Assembly (NCBI GenBank): GCA_051313645.2
Contig: JBNRSN020000002.1
Coordinates: 123,442,001 to 123,506,000 of the forward strand
DNA length: 64,000 nucleotides
From: Centroscyllium fabricii
Taxonomy: Eukaryota
Reading direction: 5' to 3'
Part shown: one piece after another, positions 1,818-63,237 of the stretch
How positions within the stretch are numbered: the first letter of the stretch is position 1
Layout: each line of letters begins with the position of its first letter
Notes under the pieces: model-generated
Database searches by the model: none
Seen by the model: the letters and a program-made list of their open reading frames with translations, nothing else
What the model was told of the DNA's origin: nothing
Translations under genes and position numbers: made by a program

Positions 1818-2000
1818 CTGACACAACTCCACCTCCAGAAGTCTCCTCTCCCTCAACATCGGCAACATCAAGATCACCTGCAACTACAACACTTTCATCT
1901 GATTCTACGACTACTATATCCAACTCACCCTCCACAGGATCAACAGACACTCCAACAGTTTCATCTCAGCCCTCGACACAGACACCAACACCTACTTCAC
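1818..2000 (+). CDS. Exon class A (183 nt, 61 codons: [60 protein letters not shown]); first of 28 copies
   Basis: Boundaries ttcattattacag|CTGAC ... ACTTCAC|gtaagt. Copies start at 1818, 4287, 5778, 7791, 9265, 11293, 13323, 14796, 16889, 19109, 20599, 22686, 28212, 29702, 31774, 33264, 35342, 40866, 42356, 44435, 45925, 48012, 53536, 55026, 57105, 58595, 61326, 62816 (each ends at start+182). Confidence 0.85.
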
Positions 2001-62000: not shown

Positions 62001-63237
62001 GCTCTAATGACGTCAGAAACAACTGCAGCAACAAGTAAATCTTCAACAATTACGTCAGTTATTTAGTGACTACATCTTGCCTCTAATCAGTGATCACCAA
62101 GGAACACTTACTGTTTATCATAGATTCTGACATTCTGTTGATTATCCTCCCTCGACTTTCCCATTTATAGCGGACACAGCCCCAAATCCAAAGCCTTCAT
62201 CGGTTTCGATAACTTCCATACCTGACTCACCCTCCTCCGGGTCAACTGCAATTTCAACTCTTTCCTCTGCACAGACGCCGATACCTACTTCACGTAAGCA
62301 ATAACTTAGTTCAGCTTTAGACAAATTATTGTCAAAGAACATTTATTACTTACTTGTCTTTCTCATACCTTATTCCAAATGTCCCTTCATCTGCAAAATT
62401 GACAGCAAACTGACCTGCAGCACCAACAGTTTTATTCTATCCTCCAAAGTGTCAACAACACTGACCTCAGGATTGCAATAACCAATATTAGACAGTCAGC
62501 GATGACTCCCAACATGTTTATTCCTCATGATTATTTCACCAATCTAACTGCAAATCACTCCCTGGGTTAAATGTCTGCAACAGACATAACTGCCATTCCA
62601 ACAATTCCAAATGCTGCTCCAATAATATCCAACTCAACCTCATCAGACACAACTGCAACTCCAATAATTTGATACTTCTTCTCAATACATTCATGAATTC
62701 TAACTAATATAAATTTCTAACTTTACCCTGGGATCAATCATTATCAACAGCAAGTTGTTATGTACTGAATTATTCAGAGATTTTGGCAAATGTTTCTGCT
62801 TCTTCATTATTACAGCTGACACAACTCCACCTGCAGAAGTCTCCTCTCCCTCAACATCTGCAACATCAGGATCACCTGCAACTACAACACTTTCATCTGA
62901 TTCTACGACTACTATATCCAACTCACCCTCCACAGTATCAACAGACACTCCAACAGTTTCATCTCAGCCCTCGACACAGACACCAACACCTACTTCACGT
63001 AAGTTCTAACTAAACCTATCCTACAATCAGTCATTTTTGAATACCATGGGCTTTCATCGGCATAATTCTCACACTTGCATCTAAGTATTTACGCTACTTC
63101 CATACCTGCAGCTCGCTCAACTAAGAACCCAATAGTTTCCTCTCATACCTCAGTATCAGAATCACTGAGCACAAAGTCAATGCAAACTACAACAGTTTCA
63201 TCTCCATCCCACACTGGATCAACAGCGGCAACCTCAG
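1818..63237 (+). CDS. Internal portion of a giant multi-exon mucin-like (PTS/O-glycosylated stalk) gene: 83 tandem exon copies (28 A, 28 B, 27 C), ~12.0 kb coding, ~4,000 aa
   Basis: Each S/T/P-rich block has a pyrimidine tract + AG before it and GTAAG-like or GTATGT donor after it. All lengths are divisible by 3 and all exons are phase 1-1. I found no in-frame stops inside exons, while stops follow soon after the A donors. No start codon, signal peptide, TM segment or Cys domain is present in the window, so the gene cannot be named. Confidence 0.82.
2114..2239 (+). CDS. Exon class B (126 nt [19 protein letters not shown]; 132/129-nt variant [21 protein letters not shown]); first of 28 copies
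   Basis: Boundaries acctgcag|CTCGCTC ... CTCAG|gtaagc, usually 112-113 nt after exon A. Copies: 2114-2239, 4583-4714, 6073-6198, 8087-8218, 9561-9686, 11589-11714, 13619-13750, 15091-15216, 17185-17310 (donor dead), 19405-19536, 20895-21020, 22982-23110, 28507-28638, 29998-30123, 32070-32201, 33560-33685, 35638-35766, 41161-41292, 42652-42777, 44731-44862, 46221-46346, 48308-48436, 53831-53962, 55322-55447, 57401-57532, 59543-59668, 61622-61753, 63112-63237. Confidence 0.85.
2545..2992 (+). mobile_element. 5'-truncated, internally deleted CR1-clade LINE fragment
   Basis: Encodes [55 protein letters not shown] (CR1 ORF2 C-terminus). It has a 3' UTR and a (TTCTATGA)n tail. It is absent from all paralogous introns, which read cactg-g-attatc. 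Confidence 0.93.
3645..3767 (+). CDS. Exon class C (123 nt, 41 codons: [40 protein letters not shown]; variant [21 protein letters not shown]..); first of 27 copies
   Basis: Boundaries tttcccatttatag|TGGAC or CGGAC ... ACTTCAC|gtaagc. Copies start at 3645, 5133, 7149, 8637, 10651, 12681, 14151, 16244, 18469, 19954, 22043, 27570, 29057, 31132, 32619, 34699, 40226, 41711, 43793, 45280, 47369, 52896, 54381, 56463, 57950, 60684, 62171 (each ends at start+122). The 3' end (TQTPTPTS) is shared with exon A. Confidence 0.82.
6463..6665. repeat. 80-bp intronic minisatellite, ~2.5 copies (representative; recurs in intact long B-to-C introns)
   Basis: aaaccacagagattgagtgacag..ctgtttca..agaggtct.tgacatcacaatgg.tactct starts at 6463, 6543 and 6623. 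Confidence 0.9.
17185..17310 (+). pseudogene. Exon B copy with destroyed splice donor (pseudo-exon)
   Basis: ACCTCAG|aaaagcaata instead of the G|gtaagca seen in the other 27 copies. Confidence 0.75.
23272..25141 (-). mobile_element. Gypsy element X (copy 1): 3' LTR, integrase, and protease fused to the RNase H tail by an internal deletion
   Basis: 3' LTR at 23508-23272 (TGTAGCGG...) is preceded by the PPT-like [22 protein letters not shown] lies directly next to [17 protein letters not shown], so RT is missing. Confidence 0.9.
23545..24939 (-). CDS. Gypsy integrase region (element X, copy 1)
   Basis: HHCC motif (HGLSHPG..CIAC), DDE core (HVDLVG, SDRGPQF, GLCERFH) and GPY motif (YDGPYRV). 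This is a pol remnant with no native start. Confidence 0.9.
   Translation of the reverse strand: MSEFTTDIQHISGRDNVVADCLSRPTINAAQMAVDYAKLAADQRADPDLRDPAENLPGLRLANIAHGPAATVVCCDVSLQQPRPVVPHAWRRRIFETLHGLSHPGTRASIKLISAHFVWRGLRKDVRAWTNACIACQRAKVHKHIKAPLETFTVPARHFDHVHVDLVGPLPPSRGHTHLMTLVDRNTRWPEAVPLVATNTTDLARAFIATWVARFGVPTDITSDRGPQFTSALWAAIARNLGVTLHRTTAYHPQANGLCERFHLSIKASLRASLQDASWTDRLPWVLLGLRPAAKEDLHASAAELVYGQTLRVPGEFLAESNTTWSADQFLKDFANPARAFTPLPVARHGEPVAHVPDNIKHAKYVFVRHDAHRSPLQPPYDGPYRVLRAGPKAFELQLGNRTETVSIDRLKPAHVIAGDATAPAQPPQRGRPPAPTPAHTPPQHQEQRTTRAGRILRPPRRLV
25142..27025 (-). mobile_element. Gypsy element Y (copy 1), nested in X: 3' LTR 25142-25417, integrase, RNase H; 5'-truncated
   Basis: LTR TGTGGTAACC...TACATCA (276 bp) is preceded by the PPT AAGAAGGGGTGAA. 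RNase [25 protein letters not shown]. Integrase: CPVC, SVDFKG, SDRGSSF, GQVEREN. Confidence 0.9.
25438..27025 (-). pseudogene. RNase H-integrase pol fragment of element Y with a frameshift near HPG (~26575)
   Basis: ORFs 26511-27035 and 25438-26640 overlap in different frames across the HHCC motif. The same frameshift is in all three copies. Confidence 0.85.
35928..39681 (-). mobile_element. Nested Gypsy X+Y composite, copy 2
   Basis: Same junctions as copy 1. Integrase ORFs at 36201-37595 and 38094-39296; RNase H at 39167-39691. Confidence 0.92.
36201..37595 (-). CDS. Gypsy integrase region (element X, copy 2)
   Basis: HHCC, DDE and GPY motifs; near-identical to copy 1. Confidence 0.9.
   Translation of the reverse strand: MSEFTTDIQHISGRDNVVADCLSRPTINAAQMAVDYAKLAADQRADPDLRDPAENLPGLRLANIAHGPAATVVCCDVSLQQPRPVVPHAWRRRIFETLHGLSHPGTRASIKLISAHFVWRGLRKDVRAWTNACIACQRAKVHKHIKAPLETFTVPARHFDHVHVDLVGPLPPSRGHTHLMTMVDRNTRWPEAVPLVATNTTDLARAFIATWVARFGVPTDITSDRGPQFTSALWAAIARNLGVTLHRTTAYHPQANGLCERFHLSIKASLRASLQDASWTDRLPWVLLGLRPAAKEDLHASAAELVYGQTLRVPGEFLAESNTTWSADQFLKDFANPARAFTPLPVARHGEPVAHVPDNIKHAKYVFVRHDAHRSPLQPPYDGPYRVLRAGPKAFELQLGNRTETVSIDRLKPAHVIVGDATAPAQPPQRGHPPAPTPAHTPPQHQEQCTTRAGRILRPPRRLV
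48598..52351 (-). mobile_element. Nested Gypsy X+Y composite, copy 3
   Basis: Same junctions as copy 1. Integrase ORFs at 48871-50265 and 50764-51966; RNase H at 51837-52361. Confidence 0.92.
48871..50265 (-). CDS. Gypsy integrase region (element X, copy 3)
   Basis: HHCC, DDE and GPY motifs; near-identical to copy 2. Confidence 0.9.
   Translation of the reverse strand: MSEFTTDIQHISGRDNVVADCLSRPTINAAQMAVDYAKLAADQRADPDLRDPAENLPGLRLANIAHGPAATVVCCDVSLQQPRPVVPHAWRRRIFETLHGLSHPGTRASIKLISAHFVWRGLRKDVRAWTNACIACQRAKVHKHIKAPLETFTVPARHFDHVHVDLVGPLPPSRGHTHLMTMVDRNTRWPEAVPLVATNTTDLARAFIATWVARFGVPTDITSDRGPQFTSALWAAIARNLGVTLHRTTAYHPQANGLCERFHLSIKASLRASLQDASWTDRLPWVLLGLRPAAKEDLHASAAELVYGQTLRVPGEFLAESNTTWSADQFLKDFANPARAFTPLPVARHGEPVAHVPDNIKHAKYVFVRHDAHRSPLQPPYDGPYRVLRAGPKAFELQLGNRTETVSIDRLKPAHVIAGDATAPAQPPQRGHPPAPTPAHTPPQHQEQCTTRAGRILRPPRRLV
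58796..59442 (+). mobile_element. Solo LTR (647 bp) with 5-bp target-site duplication AAACC
   Basis: Starts TGTCA and ends TTACA, with AAACC at 58791-58795 and 59443-59447. Contains GATTGG (CCAAT box), an (AT)n run and AATAAA at 59372. It is absent from paralogous A-B introns. Confidence 0.9.

Follow-up and report, generated by a model that had tools for sequence, protein, structure and literature searches.

The 64,000-nucleotide stretch of the Centroscyllium fabricii genome analysed here (contig JBNRSN020000002.1, positions 123,442,001 to 123,506,000, hereafter the window) is part of a much longer tandem array of small exons that encode proline-, threonine- and serine-rich sequence (PTS). 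We put at roughly 60% the probability that this array is the mucin ectodomain of one shark membrane-mucin gene, in which most of the intact exons are likely included and the length of the product has likely been altered by exon duplication and loss. The evidence comes from the architecture of the array, from the kinds of mutation its copies have and have not accumulated, and from candidate first and last exons on either side of it.

A three-exon unit repeated across the window

Three exon types, A, B and C, account for the 83 copies found in the window (28, 28 and 27, respectively), and they follow one another in the order (ABC)x27+AB. All 83 have lengths divisible by three and symmetric phase 1-1 borders; joined end to end they give 4,015 codons without a stop, with serine, threonine and proline making up 65% of the residues and cysteine absent. 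The acceptor AG is present in every copy and the donor GT in 82 of the 83, so that 82 are intact. The initial annotation of this stretch had reported 83 phase-1 copies in strict A-B-C order, a count that proved exact, and had argued that any subset could be removed without breaking the frame. The phases and junction codons bear this out, since no junction among A, B and C ends creates a stop. Eight C copies end in T, however, and would generate TAA if joined directly to the candidate transmembrane exon described below.

Much of the exon count in the window stems from a recent higher-order repeat with a period of about 12.67 kb, whose copies differ from one another at 35-112 sites per pair. The suggestion that the locus changes length by copy number and by alternative splicing thus holds for the former, given the 98.9-99.6% identity of these repeats, whereas combinatorial splicing is unsupported. 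Exon duplication requires symmetric phases, and these are to be expected even where no alternative splicing occurs. The symmetry and strict order of the exons would follow from tandem duplication of a three-exon unit, and as a by-product of that process they do not demonstrate alternative splicing.

The array beyond the window

We examined the window together with 400 kb to its left and 800 kb to its right, with coordinates continuing outward (genome position = 123,442,000 + coordinate). As had been predicted, the array runs past both window edges, on the left beyond a Gypsy element, and extends over about 390 kb from about -69,800 to +320,600. The catalogue holds 218 exon-like copies, matches below 79% identity or of very short length (among them a 41-nt piece of A near +96,700) being set aside. 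Intact copies number 198, namely 197 standard exons (69 A, 66 B and 62 C) and a 177-nt A variant at -69,115. The remaining 20 comprise eight partial copies, ten with splice-site death alone, one that is frameshifted and also has a dead acceptor, and one with a stop and intact sites. Broken copies make up 1 of 83 in the window, 5 of 33 to its left and 14 of 102 to its right, making the window the best-preserved section. Across the whole array the intact exons retain 65% serine, threonine and proline, with no cysteine in 9,586 residues, and are separated by introns of 109 nt to 34.6 kb. The 197 intact A, B and C exons include 157 distinct sequences, so long reads should be assignable to individual copies.

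Exact matches to the exon-A acceptor pattern number 60 in the 7.2-Gb genome, and all of them lie here on one strand, which indicates a single locus. An assembly artefact in which identical sequence was falsely duplicated appears unlikely because the 12.67-kb copies differ from each other and because the unit is present as DNA in reads of two samples. Four sequencing runs over 1700-5400 behave as DNA, with contigs that span exon-intron borders and no exon-exon junction among the joints listed; they carry no weight either way on expression.

Stop codons are purged while residue changes accumulate

The variants carried by the copies were used as a record of selection, each distinct non-majority allele being counted once per exon class and the expected number of stop alleles being derived from the mutation spectrum of the locus itself. 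The codon and splice-site tests set aside the 125-nt frameshifted C, the 120-nt C, the 177-nt A and the eight partial pieces. Amino-acid replacements and silent changes are equally frequent (omega 1.02; 228 nonsynonymous and 103 synonymous). A value near 1 is expected in mucin repeats, where composition rather than sequence matters; as a test of whether the gene is alive, dN/dS was uninformative. Stop-creating alleles tell a different story: in the coding frame one was observed against 13.8 expected, compared with 21 (21.9 expected) and 4 (10.2 expected) in the two control frames. When expectations were scaled class by class, the deficit was similar (1 against 13.3, P 2e-5), so that about 93% of the expected stop alleles are missing, whereas alleles that destroy AG or GT were not significantly depleted (6 against 10.3, P 0.11; contrast with stops, P 0.03). 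Three of the four distinct exon indels are multiples of three, and the frameshifted copy has a dead acceptor as well; most indels in the flanking introns are not multiples of three. These patterns indicate that selection acts on the open frame and composition of the exons and not on their sequence, and that the exons are translated.

Candidate ends and the predicted product

The array lies between a urea transporter gene and EPG5, and the intervening DNA contains a candidate signal-peptide exon 15.5 kb before the array, with a TATA-like word upstream and a non-optimal donor, and a transmembrane exon 24.3 kb past the last intact array exon, whose hydrophobic stretch carries no charged residue (Table 1). 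The first and last exons were chosen by visual inspection together with a home-made splice score; in the interval from the urea transporter to EPG5, no other convincing signal-like or transmembrane-like exon was seen. At 91 nt into the tail exon there is a second strong acceptor (score 7.1) which, if used after the transmembrane exon, would give an alternative tail of 29 residues without the basic cluster.

We infer that these candidate exons are spliced onto the array. When signal, array, transmembrane and tail exons were joined by script, the phases fitted and produced one frame of 9,758 residues with a single terminal stop, in which cysteine is confined to the signal region and strong hydrophobicity to the signal and the transmembrane stretch. 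The predicted product is a type I membrane mucin up to about 9,800 residues long, with a signal peptide, some 200 exon-encoded repeats, one span and a 40-residue tail. The glycoprotein stalk envisaged in the initial annotation survives in this model, probably as a membrane-anchored mucin, with its maximum moved from about 4,000 to about 9,700 residues. The annotation had also called for a survey of the flanks, which yielded the candidate signal-peptide and transmembrane exons and no folded domain: none of the 237 stop-free frames of at least 35 residues in locally unique DNA between the end exons gave a Pfam match to SEA, EGF, VWD, Ig or FN3, in a scan that masked DNA repeated within the fetched region, skipped one frame across a locus border and could miss a very diverged or masked exon. 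Its only matches were retroelement domains and one CAST/ERC fragment, and the same scan detected exon-sized pieces of the urea transporter. Homologue searches with exon A, the transmembrane exon and the tail exon returned no match; for the transmembrane exon the best Atlas score was 0.76, to an unnamed entry, and Pfam gave a sub-threshold match only.

A dying exon type and three relics

In addition to the three live types, each unit carries one dying module (D) and three dead ones (E, F and G), none of which had been described in the initial annotation. Type D was originally a 66-nt exon, and its original donor is gone from most of the 37 copies found array-wide, all of which are stop-free. 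The window holds 11 of these copies (the one in Table 1 and those at 8459, 13991, 19776, 28879, 32441, 41533, 45102, 54203, 57772 and 61993), and 8 of the 11 combine AG with an in-frame GTAAAT. In most copies the acceptor is strong (6.6) and the in-frame donor weak (2.8). Among the exon types, D is the best candidate for a truly optional micro-exon. The relics E, F and G have lost consensus donors almost throughout (Table 1).

A probable, mostly constitutive mucin stalk and its alternatives

The purge of stops, combined with tolerated loss of splice sites, suggests that the exons were translated, likely mostly included and individually dispensable, and a purge of this strength speaks for the usual inclusion of most copies in at least one tissue. 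According to the mechanism we propose, a stop in an included exon would cost the product its anchor or trigger decay and would be purged, while loss of a splice site would drop 41-61 residues in frame and be tolerated. Unequal crossing-over would add or remove whole units, and a copy with a lost splice site or a transposon insertion would be skipped in frame and decay, as E, F and G may have done and as D may now be doing. If O-glycosylated, the product would form a long bottle-brush on the cell surface. The broken copies imply that some skipping is forced, and regulated skipping is unnecessary to explain the observations. The C copy at +262,383, whose splice sites are intact around an in-frame stop, must be skipped for a membrane form to be made; otherwise the allele would be null or its product secreted.

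Several points weigh against a largely constitutive membrane mucin. Inserted DNA makes up 68% of the array span, and many copies at the array ends are broken. One control frame is also somewhat poor in stops (4 against 10.2), and the copies are related, so that allele counts are not independent and the tests are approximate. From the purge, inclusion can be concluded for some tissue but not for every tissue, and inclusion of every exon, the stop-bearing copy among them, gives no membrane form from this haplotype. In addition, the choice of the end exons, made with a simple score and visual judgement, finds no support from a homologue, and every exon-exon join is predicted.

In the same gene, regulated skipping of exons, in blocks or in combinations, might adjust stalk length within a single animal, in the manner of the titin PEVK region or the CD45 stalk exons. 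All combinations of A, B and C are in frame and stop-free, one copy has to be skipped for the membrane form, and the strong acceptor and weak in-frame donor of type D, together with the low-scoring B acceptors (means 2.9-3.0) and C donors (means 2.4-2.8) and the wide range of intron sizes, are what such tuning might exploit; titin offers a precedent, with about 100 symmetric exons so used (PMC3575840, in the portion available). Yet the symmetry is expected in any case, and the missing 93% of stop alleles fit high inclusion. The available part of a study of chicken MUC2 describes one in-frame event and no massive alternative splicing on infection (PMC3549977). We consider regulated tuning unlikely on balance, and hold as equally doubtful its titin-like extension, a glycocalyx ruler in which block skipping among some 200 cassette exons would fix the height for each cell type, anywhere between a few hundred and about 9,700 residues.

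More improbable is a secreted mucin, or a gene with other ends, in which the candidate signal and transmembrane exons are unrelated to the array or a folded-domain exon was missed. The gaps of 15.5 and 24.3 kb, the non-optimal first donor, the masking of locally repeated DNA before the domain scan and the stop-bearing copy, which would give a product lacking the transmembrane segment if included, could all be read in this way. However, the signal-like and transmembrane-like exons are the sole convincing ones between the neighbouring genes, their strand and phases fit, the transmembrane exon opens with a serine- and threonine-rich stretch, and secreted-mucin domains matched none of the 237 frames. 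It is very improbable that the gene was live until recently and is now dead or a null allele, its array persisting as a segmental repeat. An omega of about 1, a stop copy with intact sites, insertions that split exons and a heavy transposon load would fit such a relic, but the purge of stops and frameshifts extends to young copies, with no stop in the 83 window exons, the first, transmembrane and tail exons are open, and omega near 1 is expected wherever composition is what counts. Relics E-G, with their stops and lost sites, show what dead modules look like at this locus.

Comparison with known systems

The locus has the broad hallmarks of a transmembrane mucin in its long, tandemly repeated, cysteine-free PTS region, and those of splice-tuned modular genes in its symmetric exons that remain in frame when skipped. 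SEA-type mucins (MUC1, 3, 12, 13, 16 and 17) were rejected because SEA and EGF matched none of the 237 frames, and gel-forming mucins (MUC2, 5AC, 5B, 6 and 19) because no VWD-C8-TIL or cysteine-knot match was found and the model lacks cysteine past the signal region; the contrast with gel-forming mucins drawn in the initial annotation is therefore inapplicable. Endomucin and CD43, which are sialomucins, have a similar layout without SEA and are 20-50 times shorter, and MUC21 and MUC22 have their repeats in a single large exon within the MHC region. Neither sequence nor synteny was found to link these genes to the shark locus. MUC4, MUC21 and MUC22 are described as SEA-less membrane mucins in the available text of PMC13643018, and the product predicted here would resemble MUC21 and MUC22 in having a signal peptide, a PTS region, one span and a short tail.

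Among the closest published designs is chicken Muc13, a transmembrane mucin with its PTS region split by exon, one repeat in each; the accessible part of the 2006 report, which proposed splice control of its length, gives at least 12 repeats of 20 residues, SEA and EGF domains and a position beside HEG (PMC1552070). Unlike Muc13, the shark gene comprises about 200 exons, which belong to three live types of 41-61 codons, and gave no SEA or EGF match. Orthology to Muc13 was rejected because the neighbours here are an SLC14A-type gene and EPG5, not HEG1. Human SIGLEC15 sits between SLC14A1 and EPG5, a position that the shark gene shares; SIGLEC15 identity was rejected because an Ig match is absent from the gene span (237 frames) and the transmembrane segment lacks a lysine, leaving position alone in common.

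Human MUC19 has about 170-180 exons, a figure that our literature search did not confirm. In the PTS region of chicken MUC2, exons 32-44 divide the repeats and one in-frame event is characterised (PMC3549977, seen in part), and in a variant table for human MUC19 exons 67-82 fall inside a cDNA stretch of about 1.4 kb (PMC13271734, likewise), suggesting that runs of small exons also occur in a mammalian gel-forming mucin. Both are secreted and carry VWD domains, in contrast to the shark gene, which has no VWD match. CD45 (PTPRC) has short O-glycosylated stalk exons under regulated inclusion, and in catfish its O-glycosylated cassette exons are reportedly expanded. CD45 differs in having FN3 and phosphatase domains, where the shark gene has a 40-residue tail and no FN3 match. 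The PEVK region of titin is similar in having many exons of 3n length that encode a low-complexity polymer and stay in frame when skipped, about 100 in number and with splice tuning proven; its RBM20-regulated skipping is demonstrated in an unrelated intracellular protein (PMC3575840, in the part available), whereas regulated skipping of the shark exons is hypothetical.

The shark gene, as predicted, fits the design of a membrane mucin, differs from the SEA-type and gel-forming mucins, Muc13 and SIGLEC15, and is assigned to no family. No description of the locus was found in the literature searched, which was thin in subscription papers and without supplements, and the accessible parts of PMC4948705 and PMC3056801 added nothing on exon-split repeats.

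Exon-per-repeat mucins and the idea of splice tuning are already published, to judge from the part of PMC1552070 available; what is new here is the scale, the ectodomain without a folded domain and the four exon types that are dead or dying. Were it expressed as the model has it, this would be a very exon-rich gene, with about 200 coding exons, titin having 363 (PMC3575840, in part), and its PTS domain would be more than twice that of MUC17 (4,073 residues; PMC13643018, in part), but the searches run turned up no relative. The locus offers a clean test of the 2006 hypothesis that an exon-split PTS region tunes mucin length by splicing within one animal, and were the glycocalyx-ruler reading true, it would be a direct case of it, in a lineage-specific gene that has no folded ectodomain and lies beside a urea transporter. 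The birth and death of exons can be read from the locus too: stops have been purged and losses of splice sites tolerated.

Table 1. Features of the array and its surroundings, in window coordinates (negative values lie left of the window)
Feature	Position	Strand	Remarks
PTS array within the window	1818..63237	+	83 copies, 82 with intact AG/GT; exon catalogue
Exon type A (example)	1818..2000	+	183 nt, phase 1-1; intact in 69/69 full-length 183-nt array copies
Exon type B (example)	2114..2239	+	126/129/132 nt; length differences are 3n indels
Exon type C (example)	3645..3767	+	123 nt
Exon type D (example)	4955..4996	+	in-frame GTAAAT at 42 nt; originally 66 nt
Relic E	2350..2409	+	acceptor and PTS-like start; 63/68 copies without consensus donor within 200 nt
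Relic F	3841..3945	+	stops; acceptor AT in 12 commonest variants; 71/74 copies without consensus donor
Relic G	4016..4141	+	in-frame stop near residue 9 in 11/12 commonest variants; 70/72 without consensus donor
B copy with dead donor	17185..17310	+	aaaagc instead of GT; skipping would be in frame
Recent higher-order repeat	17527..58796	+	period ~12.67 kb, ~3.3 copies, 98.9-99.6% identical
Candidate signal-peptide exon	-84,716..-84,638	+	ATG, 26 codons, phase-1 donor; hydrophobic core, single copy
First intact array exon	-69,115..-68,939	+	177-nt A variant
C copy with in-frame TAA	+262,383..+262,505	+	strong acceptor, intact donor; 17 intact exons downstream
Last intact array exon	+320,260..+320,442	+	type A
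Candidate transmembrane exon	+344,756..+344,892	+	phase 1-0, single copy; S/T-rich lead-in, strongly hydrophobic stretch
Candidate tail exon	+344,978..+345,100	+	40 codons, basic start, stop; 85-nt intron after transmembrane exon
Urea transporter (SLC14A-type), upstream	-266,775..-184,964	+	3/3 exons tested match
EPG5, downstream	+400,863..+656,329	+	exon 93% identical to sawshark EPG5, 88% to whale shark EPG5
End of 4.9-kb long terminal repeat (LTR)-retrotransposon-like insertion	1..1618	-	C-A intron; gag-like/protease open reading frame (ORF) 2-1276
3.75-kb insertion	23272..27025	-	B-C intron; two integrase ORFs
Further copies of 3.75-kb integrase insertion	35928-39681, 48598-52351

Neighbouring genes and inserted sequences

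The name EPG5 rests on exon identity to the sawshark and whale shark genes, Pfam, PDB and Atlas having given nothing. Human EPG5 and the urea transporter are on opposite strands; in this shark they are on the same strand. Beyond EPG5 lie a gene that we take to be DNAJ-like (+715,962..+763,612) and, at +835,402, an exon that we take to be aldo-keto-reductase-like, and inspection by eye of 200 kb there, a weak test, revealed no Ig-like exon. The last urea-transporter exon (-185,123..-184,964) can either run to a stop two codons further on or use a phase-1 GT donor just before, alternatives that fit the short and long C-terminal isoforms of elasmobranch urea transporters.

Unit-like DNA makes up 32% of the array span; 44 insertions of at least 300 bp total 266 kb, and several of those tested contain retrotransposon domains. 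The 4.9-kb LTR-like element starts 3.25 kb left of the window, and the exon array resumes beyond it. Inserts of the same size as the 3.75-kb element occur outside the window at +65,489 and +91,793. Within a 23-kb array insertion, about 250.7 kb from the window start and amid retrotransposon fragments, a 99-residue frame matches Pfam CAST/ERC (PF10174, E 5e-19) and is probably a fragment of an ERC1/ERC2-type gene that arrived by capture or retrocopying. A 635-bp insertion at 58802-59436 brings one A-B intron to 765 nt, up from about 113 nt. An 80-bp repeat, 2-2.5 copies in tandem, occupies B-C introns at 2996-3152 and 13 like places, and its read depth, far above that of the exons, suggests a genome-wide repeat carried within the unit. 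The B-C intron sequence at 2545-2992 is a 448-bp retroposon tail of extreme depth in the DNA runs, which we take to resemble the shark HE1/HER1 family.

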